Source: a virus (taxonomy: Duplodnaviria > Caudoviricetes). From it: 29,999 nt of DNA. The notes beneath the pieces were generated by a model. That model had not been told where the DNA came from and searched no databases. It was given only the letters and a program-made list of their open reading frames with translations. Shown here in pieces: positions 1-29,999 of the stretch. The stretch lies in IMG/VR virus record IMGVR_UViG_3300021433_000016, positions 1 to 29,999 of that record; one strand, written 5' to 3'. Numbering within the stretch: position 1 is the first letter of the stretch; each line of letters begins with the position of its first letter. A program made the position numbers and the translations under genes.

Positions 1-27
1 AGCGGTGAAACGAAACGGGAGGGCGTG

Positions 28-795
28 ATGGCCACAAAAGAGACGCTGTTTGAGGGCGAAGTGGTGCCAACGGAGGGCAAGCAGGAATCGCGGGCCTTGG
101 TTGCTAACAACCCATATTTGGGCATGGTAGAGCGTTGGGGGCAAGACCCTAACTTCGACGTGGCGAAGATGCGGGCCATGATGGACATGGCGAAGGAGTG
201 GCAGGCAGAGCAGGCAAGGTTGGCTTTTGCCGTCGCCAAGAACCACTTCAAGAGGAATCTTCCGACCATCGAAAAGACGAAGCCAATCGTTATTTCCCGA
301 GAGGCGAACGCGAAACCCGCTTACTATTACGCGCCCCTGGATGAGGTCTGCGAAAAGATCATCCCAGCCCTGAACGCTGTTGGGATTGAGCATTGCTGGT
401 CAACCACTTATGAAGGAGAGTGGATGGTGGTGACCTGCACCTTGACCCATGAACTTGGGCACAAGGAAAGCACGTCCATGCGGGGGTGTGCCGATAAGAC
501 AGGCTCCAAGAATGCGATTCAGGCTGAGGGGAGCACGCTTTCCTATTTGGAACGGTATACCCTCTGCTCAATCTGCGGAATCGCCATCAAGGGGCTCGAC
601 ACGGACGGGGCGGTTGGTTCGGTGGGGGAACAATGGTTGAAAGATCAGATTGACGAAATTGGGCGCTGCGAAACGTCCTCAGGGCTGACGAATGCCTACA
701 AAAAGGCCGCTGCGGAAGCTCTGAATGCGCGGGACATGAATGCCTACCACAAGTTGCAATCGGCTTACGGTGCCAGAAAGCAGGCAATCGCTTGA
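28..795 (+). CDS. erf: ERF-family single-strand annealing protein (phage recombinase)
   Basis: ERF signature 'KNAIQAEGSTLSYLERYTLCSICGI...DTDG', preceded by 'YYYAPLDEV' and 'VTCTLTHELGHKES'. GGAGG at 18-22 favours ATG 28 over GTG 25. Confidence 0.9.
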   Translation: MATKETLFEGEVVPTEGKQESRALVANNPYLGMVERWGQDPNFDVAKMRAMMDMAKEWQAEQARLAFAVAKNHFKRNLPTIEKTKPIVISREANAKPAYYYAPLDEVCEKIIPALNAVGIEHCWSTTYEGEWMVVTCTLTHELGHKESTSMRGCADKTGSKNAIQAEGSTLSYLERYTLCSICGIAIKGLDTDGAVGSVGEQWLKDQIDEIGRCETSSGLTNAYKKAAAEALNARDMNAYHKLQSAYGARKQAIA

Positions 796-1496
796 TTATT
801 GAGGGGCTTGTCCAGCAAACGCCAGAGTGGTTAATGCAGCGAATCGGGATGTGTACGGCATCCCGAGTGAAGGACGTTATGAAGCGCCTGCAACGTGCCA
901 GCGGTGGCCGAAAAAAGGGGGACTACGCCCAGCCGCACTACAACTATCTGAAAGAGTTGGTGATAGAGCGGCTTACTGGGCGGGCGCAAGACCACAACAT
1001 TGGCAACCTGCAAGCGGTAGAGTGGGGAATCGAAAACGAGCCTGTGGCGCGGGGATATTATGAGATCGCTACCGACCAGAAGTGTACCCCCATCGGCTTC
1101 GCCATGCACCCCAGCATTGAGTGGTTCGGTGCATCTCCCGATTCACTTGTAGGCGAAGACGGGCTCATCGAGATTAAGTGTCTGGCCTCTGACAACCACC
1201 TCGACATTTTGGAATCGGGCGAGATACCCGAAGAGCACGTGCCTCAATTGTTGGCTGAGATGGCTTGCGCGGAACGGCAGTGGGCAGACTTCATCGCCTT
1301 CGATCCCCGCTTCCCGCCCGAGCACCGCCTATTCATTAAGCGCCTTCATCGGAACGAAGAACTCGACCATACTATCGGCATGATGGAAGACGAGGTGCGC
1401 TCGTTCCTTGCCGAAGTGGATGCGAAACTCAAGGCGTTGACCAAGAGCGTGCCGATACAGAACGAGGCCGCAAGCTACAGTTCGATAGTCCCGTAA
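792..1496 (+). CDS. YqaJ-like / lambda-exonuclease family 5'-3' exonuclease
   Basis: Motifs 'QQTPEWLMQRIGMCTASR', 'WGIENEPVAR', 'GASPDSLVGEDGLIEIKC' (PD-(D/E)xK) and 'QWADFIAFDPRFP'. TTG start overlaps the ERF stop. Confidence 0.93.
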   Translation: MIIEGLVQQTPEWLMQRIGMCTASRVKDVMKRLQRASGGRKKGDYAQPHYNYLKELVIERLTGRAQDHNIGNLQAVEWGIENEPVARGYYEIATDQKCTPIGFAMHPSIEWFGASPDSLVGEDGLIEIKCLASDNHLDILESGEIPEEHVPQLLAEMACAERQWADFIAFDPRFPPEHRLFIKRLHRNEELDHTIGMMEDEVRSFLAEVDAKLKALTKSVPIQNEAASYSSIVP

Positions 1497-1506
1497 GGAG
1501 GGCAGC

Positions 1507-3159
1507 ATGGCTCATATTGTAATTGGCGATGCGGGAAGCAAGCACGTCAGCATTGATCTGGATACGTTGCTGCGGACTCGTATGCTCTTGCAGGCCAATT
1601 CGGGCAAGGGAAAGTCTTGGCTCCTTCGTCGGTTGGCGGAGCAGATGTTTGGGAAGGTGCAAGTCATCATCATTGATCCAGAAGGTGAGTTCGCCACACT
1701 GCGGGAAAAGTTCGACTATGTTCTGGTCGGCAAGGGCGGCGAGACTGCCGCGCATCCTCGTATCGCGGCGTTGACGGCGCAACGCTTGTTGGAACTTAGA
1801 GCTTGTGCGGTTTGTGACTTGTACGAGATGAAGCCGAGCGAACGACATTCCTACGTGAAGAACTTCTTAGAGGCGTTGATTGATGCCCCCAAGACGCTGT
1901 GGCACCCGCTGGTGGTGATTGTGGATGAGGCGCACGTTTACTGCCCTGAGAAGGGGGCGGGAGAATCTGAGGCGTCGGATGCGATGATCGGGATGGCAAC
2001 GCGAGGAAGAAAGCGTGGCTACTGTCTCGTGGCAGCTACGCAGCGATTGGGTAAATTCCGCAAGGATGCCGCGTCTGAACTCTTGAACGTTGGCATCGGC
2101 GGCACGTTCATTGATATCGACCGAAAGCGCGCCGCTGACGCGCTGGGAGTTTACGGCAACGAAGTGCACCCCTTCTTCGATGAAATCAGGATGTTGGAGA
2201 AAGGCAAGTTTTACTTTCTAGGCCCTGCGATTTCTACAGAACGAGTGCTAGTTACCGTAGGGCCGATCCAGACTACGCATCCCGAGGCTGGGAGTTCCAA
2301 GCACGCTGGCGAACCGCCTCCTACCCCGGAGAAGATTAAGGCTCTGCTGCCCAGTCTGGCTGATCTACCGAAAGAAGCGGAGGAAAAAGCCAAGAGCATC
2401 GCTGATCTGCAAAGACAAGTGCGCGAACTTAAGGGGGAATTGTCCAAACGCCCCACCGAAGTGAAGCAGGTTGTTGAGGAAAGGCGCGTAGAGGTTCCAA
2501 TGTTACAGCCTGAGCAGATTGCCGCGCTGGGTGAGTCGGTAAAAGAGCTTAAGCAGGCTGCGGGAGTAATTGAAGCAGCATTGGCAAGCGTGCGCCGAAT
2601 GCCCGTCGCCGCACTCCCGCCACGCGTGGTTCCGACTCCGGCTCCGCGAACCCGCGCGGTTGTCGCTTCATCAAACGGTGATTTGACTGGCCCAGAAACC
2701 AAAATTCTCAAGGCATTAGCCGAGCTTCTTTCTATCGGGAAGGAAACTCCGCCAAAGAACATGGTGGCTGCGTGGGCTGGGTACTCCCCCGTGGGCGGGG
2801 CCTTCGGTAATCCAATGGGAGCATTGCGAACCAAGGGCTACATCGACTATCCACAACCGGGAACTGTTGTGTTAACGGACGCAGGTCAAGAGGCAATCGG
2901 CACATTAGACCCGCCAGATCAGGACGAAATTTGGCGGCGGATCGAAAGCAGTTGCACAGGCCCAGAACAGAAGATTCTGCGGGCGCTAATCGACAACGCA
3001 GGGCAAGAGGAGATCGCCAAAGCGGACCTTGCGGAGAAAGCTGGCTACTCGCCTATCGGTGGGGCGTTTGGTAATCCCGTAGGCGCGCTCCGCACCAAGG
3101 GACTGTTGGATTATCCGCGCACCGGATTTGTAAAAGCAGCAGATTGGATATTCTTTTAA
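1507..3159 (+). CDS. HerA/FtsK-like (DUF87) P-loop ATPase with coiled coil and two tandem C-terminal winged-helix-like repeats
   Basis: Walker A 'ANSGKGKS', 'IIIDPEGEF', Walker B 'VIVDEAH', HerA-type 'RGRKRG...VAATQR'. Strong RBS AAGGAGG immediately upstream. Confidence 0.85.
   Translation: MAHIVIGDAGSKHVSIDLDTLLRTRMLLQANSGKGKSWLLRRLAEQMFGKVQVIIIDPEGEFATLREKFDYVLVGKGGETAAHPRIAALTAQRLLELRACAVCDLYEMKPSERHSYVKNFLEALIDAPKTLWHPLVVIVDEAHVYCPEKGAGESEASDAMIGMATRGRKRGYCLVAATQRLGKFRKDAASELLNVGIGGTFIDIDRKRAADALGVYGNEVHPFFDEIRMLEKGKFYFLGPAISTERVLVTVGPIQTTHPEAGSSKHAGEPPPTPEKIKALLPSLADLPKEAEEKAKSIADLQRQVRELKGELSKRPTEVKQVVEERRVEVPMLQPEQIAALGESVKELKQAAGVIEAALASVRRMPVAALPPRVVPTPAPRTRAVVASSNGDLTGPETKILKALAELLSIGKETPPKNMVAAWAGYSPVGGAFGNPMGALRTKGYIDYPQPGTVVLTDAGQEAIGTLDPPDQDEIWRRIESSCTGPEQKILRALIDNAGQEEIAKADLAEKAGYSPIGGAFGNPVGALRTKGLLDYPRTGFVKAADWIFF
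2683..3156 (+). repeat. Intragenic tandem duplication (270-nt / 90-aa period) in the ATPase C-terminus
   Basis: 'LTGPETKILKAL...AGYSPVGGAFGNPMGALRTKGYIDYP' (from 2683) versus 'CTGPEQKILRAL...AGYSPIGGAFGNPVGALRTKGLLDYP' (from 2953). Confidence 0.9.
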
Positions 3160-27293: not shown

Positions 27294-28823
27294 ATCGCCC
27301 GCTTCGGATTCAATTCTGGCGCATATCAATTACAGTCGCCAAACGTTGACAATGAGACCTGCATCAATCGAATCCCGGAAACTCCCGAGACGGCTGGTGC
27401 AAAGTCGGCAATTACGTTGATGCCAAGTCCCGGCCTCGCAACAAAGTACACGCTCCCAGAGTCATCTATCCCTTGGGAATTTCAGGTCAATGGGCGCGGA
27501 TTCGTGGCTGGAGCTAGTTTCTACGAACTTCTGACCAATGGGACCTATACGAACTGGGGAACGCTAAACGTAACGCCTGTTACCCCAACACAAATTTTCT
27601 GCTGCCAGACGCACTTGCTGATTCTGTCGAACGGCGATCTCTTCATCTTTGTGCTCACTGCCTTCACTGACTCAAACGGCGCGAATCATCCTGCGAATAG
27701 CTTCTTGGCCGTGGACATGGCACAATTCAACGGGCCAGTGTTGCAAATCGACTTCTGTGATGGATACTTTTTCGCGGTAATTCAGGACTCGAACACGTTT
27801 CAGGTCTCAAATCTCGAAGACGGCACGACATGGAGCGGGCTGTTTATCTCAACAATCTCTCGCTTTCCTGACAACATCGTGTCCCTGAAATTCGATCACG
27901 ATATCGTTTGGTTTCTCTCCGGGAAGAAGATCATCGGCTATTACGACTGCGGGGCGGGCTATCCGCCATTCATCCCAATCCAGGGGGCCTTCCTCGAAGA
28001 TGGCTGCGCTGCGACGTTCGGGACCGTACAGGCGAACGATACGTTTTGCTGGATTGAGCAGAGTGAGCGCGGCAGCGGCGTGGTGAAGATGATGGGACAG
28101 AATGTCGGAATAAGGATTTCGACTCTGGCAGTCGAGTTTGCCCTGCAATCCTACTCCACCATCGCGGATGCGGTGAGCTATGCGTATGAAGATCAGGGAC
28201 ACAAGTTCCTGATGATCCGCTTTCCAACGGCAAACGAGACATGGTGCTATGACTTCTTTACCTCGTTGTGGCACAAGAGAGCCTTCTGGAATCAGAGGAC
28301 CGGAACGTTCATTGCTCATCGTTCAATGTCGCACATGGAATTTATGGGAATGCATCTCGTTGGCGATCCTCTCTCTGGGAATATCTACGAGATGTCCATC
28401 AACATCTATGAGGACTTCGGTAATCCGCTTATCTGGGAGCGCGGAGGGCCGCAAATCTCGGTAGAGAACAAATGGCTATACCATGACGAAGTAGAATTCG
28501 ACATCCAGATGGGAGTTGGGCCGATTCCTCCGCTGCTGGACGGCAATCAGCCGAGGGCACCGCAGGTCATCCTGTACTGGATCGACCGCCTTACGCAACG
28601 CAGTAACGACTACTATCTATCAATTGGGCAAGCGGGAGTGTCGAATGTTCGCGCGCGAAAGGTCAAGCTTGGCCGTTCTCGAATGCGGCAGTATTTCTTG
28701 AGGGGTAGCGATCCTGTTCCCGTGAGGATATGCGATGCTTTCCTGACGGCAAGGACGGAAGATGGGCAGTACGCCTATAAGCCGGGAGAGCGAATCTCTG
28801 AGCAACTTCGGAAGATCACATAG
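27294..28823 (+). CDS. packaged DNA stabilization / tail hub protein (P22 gp10-like), apparent ATC start
   Basis: 'DGYF', 'PDNIVSL', 'GC.A', 'AYEDQGHKF...FPTANETWCYD...WHKR'. The frame stays open upstream of TTG 27417 to ATC 27294, 6 nt after AGGAGG. Confidence 0.85.
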   Translation: MARFGFNSGAYQLQSPNVDNETCINRIPETPETAGAKSAITLMPSPGLATKYTLPESSIPWEFQVNGRGFVAGASFYELLTNGTYTNWGTLNVTPVTPTQIFCCQTHLLILSNGDLFIFVLTAFTDSNGANHPANSFLAVDMAQFNGPVLQIDFCDGYFFAVIQDSNTFQVSNLEDGTTWSGLFISTISRFPDNIVSLKFDHDIVWFLSGKKIIGYYDCGAGYPPFIPIQGAFLEDGCAATFGTVQANDTFCWIEQSERGSGVVKMMGQNVGIRISTLAVEFALQSYSTIADAVSYAYEDQGHKFLMIRFPTANETWCYDFFTSLWHKRAFWNQRTGTFIAHRSMSHMEFMGMHLVGDPLSGNIYEMSINIYEDFGNPLIWERGGPQISVENKWLYHDEVEFDIQMGVGPIPPLLDGNQPRAPQVILYWIDRLTQRSNDYYLSIGQAGVSNVRARKVKLGRSRMRQYFLRGSDPVPVRICDAFLTARTEDGQYAYKPGERISEQLRKIT

Positions 28824-29164
28824 TGCCCACTACGCAGATAACACGTCGCCCTCCGCCCTTGCGTTTTGCCGATCTTTCCCAGCCCATGCAATTCTGGGAG
28901 TTAGAGACTCAACAATCTGCGCCCCTGAATAAAGTAGATACGTCGAACGGTTCGTATACGGAAGCGCCCCCTGCGGCGGGGCTGGATACCACTACGGGGC
29001 AAACGAACCAGAACCAAGAAATCACCTACATAAAGATTTCGGCAGATGACAATACGTTCACACTTAAGGGTGCGAATCTTCCTCTTGGTCCTTATACTTT
29101 GACGGCGCTAGGAGGCAGCTTCAAAATCAAGTCTGACGGAACGGACTGGTACAAAAGCGCATGA
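28823..29164 (+). CDS. hypothetical tail-associated protein
   Basis: Coupled to the gp10 stop; 'YIKISADDNTFTL...KIKSDGTDWY' beta-rich motif seen in tail proteins. Confidence 0.6.
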   Translation: MPTTQITRRPPPLRFADLSQPMQFWELETQQSAPLNKVDTSNGSYTEAPPAAGLDTTTGQTNQNQEITYIKISADDNTFTLKGANLPLGPYTLTALGGSFKIKSDGTDWYKSA

Positions 29165-29373
29165 TCTTTGAGGAAATTCTTAAACGAGAACTAGGAGATG
29201 GAATCTCGATTGAATCCAAAATCGACGATTCAGCGATTGAGTCGCTCGAATATCTGGCCTTCATCAAAGCGCTTGAAGACGAGTATCGTCTTACTTTGGA
29301 TGAGGTCACGATTCAGCGGTGCGAGACATTCCACGATTTGTATGACCTTATTCGCCTTACGCCATCATGCTAA
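29161..29373 (+). CDS. acyl carrier protein-like
   Basis: 'DDSAIESLEYLAFIKALEDEYRLTLDEVTIQRCETFHDLYDLI' aligns by eye with AcpP '[43 protein letters not shown]'. Ser28 is at the phosphopantetheine site. Confidence 0.75.
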   Translation: MIFEEILKRELGDGISIESKIDDSAIESLEYLAFIKALEDEYRLTLDEVTIQRCETFHDLYDLIRLTPSC

Positions 29374-29822
29374 AGCTTCAAGTCGAGCCCTGGGAAGTTC
29401 TCTGGCGGGACGGCCAAGATATTTTCAGAACTCACTATGACGAACTTGCCCTCCACAAGGAATCTATGCCGTTGGGGCTTGATAACGAGTTATATTCCGA
29501 TCTCCAGACAAAGAATTTCTTGCTCATTGTAACCGCCAGACGGAGTGGGAGGCTCGTCGGCTATTATGTCGGCGTCATCGTCTCGCATCATCCGCACAAC
29601 AAAGACGCTGGCAAGGTTTCCACTACTGATATGTTCTACATTATTCCCAGCGAGCGAAAAGGAGGAGCTGGAGTTAAGCTCTTGAAGTTCGCTGAAGCAG
29701 AATTAAAGGCAAATGGAGTCATTAAAGCGACGATTAGTACAAAGGCGGGATTTGAGAACGGTGAATTGCTAGAAGCTTTGGGTTGGCACAAGTCAGATAT
29801 AGTGAGACAAAAAGTCCTCTAG
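29367..29822 (+). CDS. GNAT-family acyltransferase
   Basis: 'GRLVGY...DMFYIIPSERKGGAGVKLLKFAEAELKANGV...LEALGW' (motif A). Confidence 0.85.
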   Translation: MLKLQVEPWEVLWRDGQDIFRTHYDELALHKESMPLGLDNELYSDLQTKNFLLIVTARRSGRLVGYYVGVIVSHHPHNKDAGKVSTTDMFYIIPSERKGGAGVKLLKFAEAELKANGVIKATISTKAGFENGELLEALGWHKSDIVRQKVL

Positions 29823-29823
29823 T

Positions 29824-29999
29824 ATGTCGATCACTGGTCCTATTCTAGCGGTTGCTGCAATTGGGGCGGCCAGTAGTGTCGCTGGTGGCGTCATGCAAGC
29901 CAATGCTGCGGGGAATGCAGCGCAGGCGCAAGAAACAGCAGCACAGCAGGCGCAGCAACTTGAGCAGCAGAATCAGCAACAAGGGATAAGTTTTCAGCA
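29824..29999 (+). CDS. DNA ejection/pilot protein (P22 gp7-like), 3' truncated by the window
   Basis: MSITGPILAVAAIGAASSVAGGVMQANAAGNAAQAQETAAQQ...: hydrophobic Gly/Ala N-terminus then Ala/Gln-rich, directly after the GNAT. Confidence 0.7.
   Translation, partial: MSITGPILAVAAIGAASSVAGGVMQANAAGNAAQAQETAAQQAQQLEQQNQQQGISFQ

Follow-up and report, generated by a model that had tools for sequence, protein, structure and literature searches.

An acyl carrier protein gene coupled to a GNAT gene before the first ejection gene of a P22-like phage: a plausible acylation system for a virion protein

In podoviruses the IVP-A slot, which lies between the tail-tube or head-closure genes and the first ejection gene, holds a small gene of acetyltransferase fold, represented by T7 gp13, P22 gp14 and the GNAT of cobaviruses (PMC4819975, PMC6775973). 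As published in the available parts of these two papers, the slot has no reported acyl carrier protein (ACP) partner and no reported substrate. The phage described here has a GNAT of the phrog_1249 type in this slot and an ACP gene directly before it. The window, a stretch of 29,999 nucleotides, is half of G001, the complete 61,440-bp record of an uncultured P22-like phage. Profile matches show that the late operon of G001 is P22-like, with terminases, a P22-type portal, scaffold, coat and head-closure genes. Head closure is followed by a gene for a 113-aa protein, then by ACP and GNAT, and finally by genes for ejection-like proteins of 293, 572 and 710 amino acids; of these three, the 293-aa protein alone matches a family (phrog_598). 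The features at the end of the window are:

27417..28823, + strand, head-closure or tail stabilisation protein, P22 gp10-like (phrog_578, E 2e-68)
28823..29164, + strand, conserved small protein of 113 amino acids between head closure and ACP, without family match
29161..29373, + strand, acyl carrier protein of 70 amino acids with Ser28 as predicted phosphopantetheine site (profiles, model, conservation)
29367..29822, + strand, GNAT acyltransferase of 151 amino acids in the IVP-A slot (PF00583, phrog_1249, model)
29824..29999, + strand, 5' portion of the gene for the first ejection protein (gp7/IVP-B-like), with a Met-Ser-Ile start (phrog_598)

The ATG of the ACP gene overlaps the stop codon of the upstream 113-aa gene (ATGA), the GNAT gene overlaps the ACP gene by 7 nt, and a gap of 1 nt separates the GNAT stop from the start of the ejection gene at 29824; the ORF coordinates thus agree with the tight packing of ACP, GNAT and gp7-like genes described in the first-pass annotation. 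The ejection gene runs past the window end and encodes 293 amino acids in L001, and its full-length product matches phrog_598 'DNA ejection' with an E of 8e-18. Homologues of the head-closure protein have an N-terminus that is ca. 40 residues longer than that of the 27417..28823 product, and the true start of this gene is probably further upstream. Judged by its position, the 113-aa protein is possibly a tail plug; its gene is also present in gp14-type relatives that have no ACP. The GNAT occupies the IVP-A position as the slot is defined in PMC4819975, being an acetyltransferase-fold gene after the head-closure gene and directly before an IVP-B/gp7 homologue. The earlier remark that a small GNAT-like gene precedes the internal virion genes of podoviruses is in line with the published slot (PMC4819975, PMC6775973). 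Scans of bacterial genomes revealed no prophage with a window-type GNAT and gave one distant head-closure match only.

Other genes of this phage include, at 25-3159 of the window, consecutive genes for an ERF annealing protein, a YqaJ exonuclease and a 550-aa HerA-like ATPase. The part of G001 outside the window encodes a protein with a Tad2-like (Thoeris anti-defence) domain (L050:3874-4341, PF11195, E 4e-24), a Tlde1-domain lysis candidate (L050:7796-8221), a papain-family protease (L050:10468-11253) and a tail-region protein of 1729 amino acids that begins like a signal peptide and contains Ig/CHB_HEX_C domains (L050:12886-18075).

The ACP fold on which the first-pass annotation had staked its proposal is borne out, and the 70-aa protein is confirmed as a genuine ACP as far as profiles, conservation and a predicted structure can establish this. 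It scores 24.1 bits against PF00550 (cut-off 20.8), and a profile built from 17 ACP homologues matched 117 solved sequences, the best of which are fatty-acid-synthase ACPs (E 8e-13). The AF2 model (pLDDT 82.6) is a four-helix bundle in which Ser28 starts helix II; its Foldseek matches with a named chain are ACPs at a TM of ca. 0.7, with a best E of 0.01 and none below 0.001. Ser28, noted earlier in the motif 'IESL' of an acidic protein (the net charge is indeed -10), and Leu29 are invariant in 19 out of 19 ACPs which are 20-46% identical to the window ACP; invariance at such low identity means that the ACP pattern exceeds chance. An aromatic residue is found at Ser+3 in 18 of these 19 proteins. 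The ACPs of loci L005, L010, L036, L042 and L151 are short (60-77 amino acids) and lack the last six or so residues of helix II.

The ACP is under purifying selection, with dN/dS of ca. 0.07-0.3 in unsaturated pairs; for the two most similar pairs the values are 0.008/0.11 and 0.059/0.68. It diverges fast, with a mean identity of 42% versus 69% for the GNAT. Divergence of the two proteins is out of step, which counts against the reading proposed below: ACP and GNAT identities are 88% and 75% in one pair and 52% and 86% in another. Single-protein searches with the window ACP returned only the phage's own ACP, and ACPs were located via GNAT and head-closure anchors because the ACP alignment is too divergent for a contig scan. 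Against the equivalogs of housekeeping AcpP (TIGR00517, PRK00982) the phage ACPs score 17-36 bits, below the cut-offs of 66-106. The best NCBIfam match of one ACP homologue is PRK08172 (E 1e-9, below its cut-off), which we take to be IacP.

The 151-aa protein scores 28.8 bits against PF00583 (cut-off 20.7) and matches phrog_1249 with an E of 5e-13; its AF2 model (pLDDT 92.4) has the GNAT fold. Its phrog matches are phrog_1249 and phrog_3810 only, phrog_651 (the P22 gp14 type) not being matched, and an hhalign comparison with a gp14-type protein gave 0.2%, without a profile alignment. Structurally it is closest to other phage GNATs, matching those of VpV262 and of roseophage origin (TM 0.75-0.87). 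The 30 Foldseek matches listed are ordinary or unassigned acetyltransferases (AAC(3), GNA1, RimI-like), and none among them is named as a carrier-dependent GNAT or an RTX acyltransferase, Foldseek being the only method by which carrier-dependent GNAT folds were compared.

A survey of related phages, as suggested in the first-pass annotation, finds the ACP syntenic. Of 23 close GNAT loci, a set that includes the phage itself and near-duplicates but not four additional duplicates, 20 have the ACP upstream, with its end at most 180 nt from the GNAT start; in the remaining three the contig holds 51 nt or less upstream. Over 246 loci the ACP profile gave 46 matches, 43 of which adjoin the window GNAT family, the other three being annotated records fetched by an ACP query. 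A head-closure anchor was used to avoid selecting on the GNAT. Among the 32 loci found in this way, nine carry ACP and GNAT (seven plus L011 and L067, the contig of which continues as L004), a gp14-type gene without ACP is present in 11, and in 12 there is another gene or the slot is not reached. Five of seven gp14-type proteins tested match phrog_651 'head morphogenesis', which presumably represents P22 gp14. PF00550 was matched over the cut-off by five of five ACP-type records, and by none of five gp14-type and none of five hydroxylase-type records (see below), several of the records being incomplete. In a tree of the gp7 body, calculated for 30 chosen rows with the N-terminal 45 residues excluded, ACP-type and gp14-type loci are mixed within a single 100/99 clade; four changes of the ACP label are required, at least two of them on starred branches. 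Together, the head-closure anchor and the gp7-body tree indicate that ACP and GNAT are swapped jointly, the structural genes being retained. The linkage extends to GNATs that are only 35-38% identical to the window GNAT, and on a quick tree, a weak method, it occurs in at least two GNAT lineages. The coupling of the two genes is well supported, as they are present or replaced together. In L007 (5469-5963), L034 (1214-1624), L005, L010 and L008, HNH-like or other insertions put 200-700 nt between the GNAT and the ejection gene; ACP and GNAT are still adjacent in these relatives.

This coupling bears on two other views of the ACP: that it acts as a decoy for ACP-binding proteins of the host, an alternative offered in the first-pass annotation, or that it is an auxiliary fatty-acid gene that ended up in the late operon by chance. 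Phage ACPs have been annotated as auxiliary metabolic genes with a function described as unclear (PMC5463345), they also occur outside the ACP-GNAT-ejection context, and the family found here resembles ACPs of the fatty-acid-synthase type. An ACP that stays beside the GNAT over the range of GNAT identity given above and leaves with it is not what such a role predicts. Fast divergence, scores far below the AcpP cut-offs, the Ser+3 aromatic residue and, in several members, the shortened helix II are likewise not what one would expect if the phage imitated a conserved protein of the host. The decoy is therefore weakened, and we regard both it and the auxiliary gene as very unlikely. The cultured-phage ACPs of FL-1, Harreka_1 and P-HM2 do not show the ACP-GNAT-ejection gene order; in Prochlorococcus phage P-HM2 the annotated ACP (L061:5911-6405) lies in the tail module, between baseplate gp5 genes and fibre genes.

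Most GNATs of the window family have no ACP. In 136 GNAT rows the upstream gene is a hydroxylase in 101 (a count that includes two spurious L187 fragments and is inflated, 80 loci having been collected by means of the hydroxylase) and an ACP in 20. It is neither in 12, of which L151 has an ACP on inspection and three belong to oxygenase clusters remote from ejection genes, and the upstream region is cut in three; no row has both. An upstream gene that is hydroxylase, ACP or neither, and never both, suggests that the slot recruits chemistry partners. The hydroxylase is an Asp/Asn beta-hydroxylase (PF05118) whose nearest solved structures are proline cis-4-hydroxylase and AspH. It overlaps the GNAT start in the place of the ACP in L018 (4462-5007) and ca. 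99 further GNAT rows. The arrangement extends over many podophages (211 matches in viral contigs), and the cultured Pseudomonas fluorescens phage PfAn1 has the hydroxylase and GNAT arrangement (L057:3401-3997). In L044-L046 and L162, on contigs of up to 169 kb, members of the window GNAT family are found within cupin/TauD oxygenase clusters, away from ejection genes.

That the partners are a carrier and an enzyme points to chemistry, and so does the GNAT itself: the family invariants include H23, E26, R58, H77, D88, R97 and K126, and the polar residues H23, E26, H77, D88, R97 and K126 are kept across 127 family members with few exceptions. Such conservation argues against the view that the GNAT has no catalytic role and serves the ejection proteins as an assembly chaperone, with the ACP as a structural subunit, an explanation which we consider most improbable even though T7 IVP-A is needed for morphogenesis, is absent from the virion and is replaceable by an unrelated protein in some phages (PMC4819975).

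Known systems suggest what this chemistry could be. In Salmonella SPI-1, IacP is a lone dedicated ACP that binds FabB of the host and acylates SipB, a pore-forming protein (PMC5279801). The phage pair would resemble it as a lone ACP that is linked to an injection device and loaded by the host, with a membrane-inserting component becoming acylated. IacP/SipB is a bacterial system, whereas the window pair is from a phage, and SipB is acylated on Cys without an identified dedicated transferase, whereas the phage ejection proteins are free of Cys and a GNAT accompanies the ACP. GdvG takes the chain carried by an ACP and places it on the N-terminus of a peptide (review PMC9811515), and in the carrier-dependent GNATs SbzI and FeeM the CoA P-loop is replaced (PMC11685415). 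GdvG, SbzI and FeeM share with the window GNAT a GNAT fold that is encoded together with its own carrier, but they belong to biosynthetic clusters with loading enzymes, for which the window phage has no match, and SbzI and FeeM have lost the CoA P-loop that the window GNAT keeps. RTX activators of the HlyC type likewise carry out acyl-ACP-dependent acylation of a pore-forming protein, but with the canonical ACP of the host and on Lys (PMC5279801). The analogy to RTX activators drawn in the earlier annotation fits poorly, the gp7-like protein having neither a conserved Lys nor any Cys; IacP/SipB and GdvG are closer. By analogy, the window pair would work like these two and be a member of neither, given the lack of Cys and the retained P-loop.

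We propose that a dedicated, host-loaded ACP supplies the GNAT, which acylates the N-terminal Ser of the ejection protein and thereby aids outer-membrane entry, and we assign this reading a probability of about 0.5. Host AcpS would add phosphopantetheine to Ser28, and fatty-acid synthase enzymes of the host would load an acyl chain on the phage ACP, as suggested by IacP and FabB. The GNAT would take this chain, presumably a fatty acid, from acyl-ACP and transfer it to the free N-terminal Ser2 of the ejection protein, after predicted removal of Met and before packaging. The acyl group may then extend the hydrophobic N-terminal segment with which the protein would enter the host outer membrane. 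Loading enzymes were not found in the phages: AcpS and ketosynthase gave no match in G001-G005, AMP ligase none in G001-G004 and G006, where hydroxylase was not matched either, and Pfam scans of selected G001 and G002 ORFs showed no lipid enzymes, though very divergent ones could escape. Since IacP is served by host enzymes, this absence weighs less against loading of the ACP.

The intact P-loop of the GNAT speaks against the use of acyl-ACP, because SbzI and FeeM have lost theirs. The segment R97-K-G-G-A-G102 has the canonical CoA-binding form Q/R-x-x-G-x-G/A, and the canonical form is found in 16 of 18 ACP-linked, 25 of 95 hydroxylase-linked and none of eight unlinked GNATs. Of the 16 canonical ACP-linked proteins, all but L011 form one clade, and the loop of two deeply placed ACP-linked members is non-canonical; the signal is therefore partly phylogenetic, as it is mostly the trait of one clade. 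At position 137, near the adenine end of the cleft, a basic residue occurs in 1 of 15 ACP-linked versus 53 of 91 other GNATs, a post hoc comparison. Such a residue presumably has a role with CoA. The restriction of the P-loop trait to one clade and the rarity of a basic residue at position 137 in ACP-linked proteins soften the counter-evidence from the P-loop. The ACP-linked GNATs have a net charge of +0.7 against -1.8 and -0.9, values by which the groups are not clearly separated, and prediction of the GNAT:ACP complex with alignments gave scores of 0.19 and 0.22, the mark being 0.32, which we weigh neither for nor against the pair.

The same observations could mean that the GNAT is an ordinary acyl-CoA (acetyl-CoA) transferase acting on a virion protein, be it the ejection protein or a different one, with the ACP as a bound cofactor, a regulator or an acceptor loaded by the GNAT. 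The canonical P-loop in the clade of the window, the acetyl-CoA enzymes that are the nearest solved folds among the 30 matches listed, the many family members without ACP and the lack of a loading enzyme in the phage all agree with this. It leaves unexplained why a carrier for which the phage encodes no further partner should have an invariant phosphopantetheine Ser, and the P-loop is canonical in only 44 of 127 family members, so that family-wide it is mostly non-canonical; the position 137 comparison also counts against it. We consider this explanation unlikely. Of the acylation system proposed in the first-pass annotation, the coupling of ACP and GNAT thus stands; its use of acyl-ACP, against which the P-loop counts, and the acylation of ejection proteins are steps that we infer.

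Returning to the proposed transfer to the ejection protein, its acceptor group can be narrowed down. The N-terminus of the gp7-like protein is hydrophobic, as described before, with a mean hydropathy of +1.6 for residues 1-24 versus -0.6 for the rest. The 293-, 572- and 710-aa ejection proteins contain no Cys. In an alignment of the 293-aa protein, the only one aligned, K137 is present in 5 of 8 ACP-type rows and K208 is not conserved. A SipB-type Cys acceptor and an RTX-type Lys acceptor in the gp7-like protein were both rejected on these grounds, and with no Cys in the ejection proteins and no conserved Lys in gp7 the alpha-amine remains.

The N-terminus of the ejection protein follows the type of gene in the slot, by patterns that were defined after seeing the same data and with several starts being inferred non-ATG codons: it reads Ser-Ile/Val-x in 10 of 11 ACP-type loci (preceded by Ala in two), Val-Ala-Ala-like in 56 of 61 hydroxylase-type loci, where a leader comes first in some; in all nine gp14-type loci it reads Met-Ser/Gly-Phe/Ala/Val or Met-Pro. 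L039 and L040 have distant gp7 bodies, yet window-type GNATs and N-termini, and L072 and L079 have close gp7 bodies, yet gp14-type genes and Met-Pro starts. The correspondence fits matching of enzyme and substrate; physical linkage accounts for it equally well, because the 5' end of gp7 abuts the GNAT. Leaders of 13-25 residues precede Val-Ala-Ala in the hydroxylase-type loci L121/L183, L128, L136/L192, L184/L188, L214, L021 and L149; they recall the cleaved leader of P22 gp7, which suggests that the mature N-terminus is the conserved feature. Starts of the gp7-like gene with GTG, CTG, TTG or possibly ACG or ATA are seen in L004, L030, L035, L037, L040, L007, L029 and L011. Such apparent non-ATG starts often overlap the GNAT stop, and they may limit the copy number of the gp7-like protein.

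ACP-dependent acylation could also have another acceptor, such as a hydroxyl group of Ser/Thr, a different protein of the virion, or an amino acid, polyamine or similar small molecule packed in the virion. The nearest GNAT folds act on small amines, the hydroxylase partner resembles hydroxylases of free proline and of Asp/Asn, and the homologues in the oxygenase-rich clusters mentioned above lie away from ejection genes. Data on the N-terminus of P22 gp7 point in the same direction and count against the target that we propose: the N-terminal sequence of a gp7 amber fragment in particles was readable, and gp7 without its first 20 residues still gave a burst of ca. 60% (PMC8402733). The slot of P22 holds the other GNAT type (gp14). 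We rate a different acceptor as quite unlikely, since in most loci the gp7-like gene directly follows the GNAT, often with overlapping stop and start, and the N-terminal motif tracks the slot type even against the gp7 body.

A wider interpretation sees in the podophage IVP-A slot a modular cassette for protein lipidation: the GNAT would acylate the first ejection protein at its N-terminus, and an exchangeable partner (the own ACP here, a beta-hydroxylase in the larger sister group) would set the acyl chain. We offer this tentatively and consider it doubtful.

The GNAT slot has been in print since at least 2015; what appears to be new is the link to a dedicated ACP. No relevant report of an ACP-GNAT-ejection link was found in a literature search that covered few subscription journals, and neither 'acetyl' nor 'acyl' occurs in the available text of PMC8954989. 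The ACP and GNAT locus is confirmed as real, conserved and coupled, and an acylation function is plausible. For the slot GNAT, whose substrate and donor are unreported in the available parts of PMC4819975 and PMC6775973, the co-travelling ACP names a candidate donor. If the proposed acylation is true, the phage would encode lipidation of its own DNA-delivery machine, in parallel to IacP and SipB, and some of the phage ACPs now listed as auxiliary metabolic would become virion-maturation factors. Should the lipidation-cassette interpretation hold as well, tailed phages would equip a membrane-entry protein with lipid, much as happens to the translocon of Salmonella, and T7 gp13 and P22 gp14 would gain a biochemical function.
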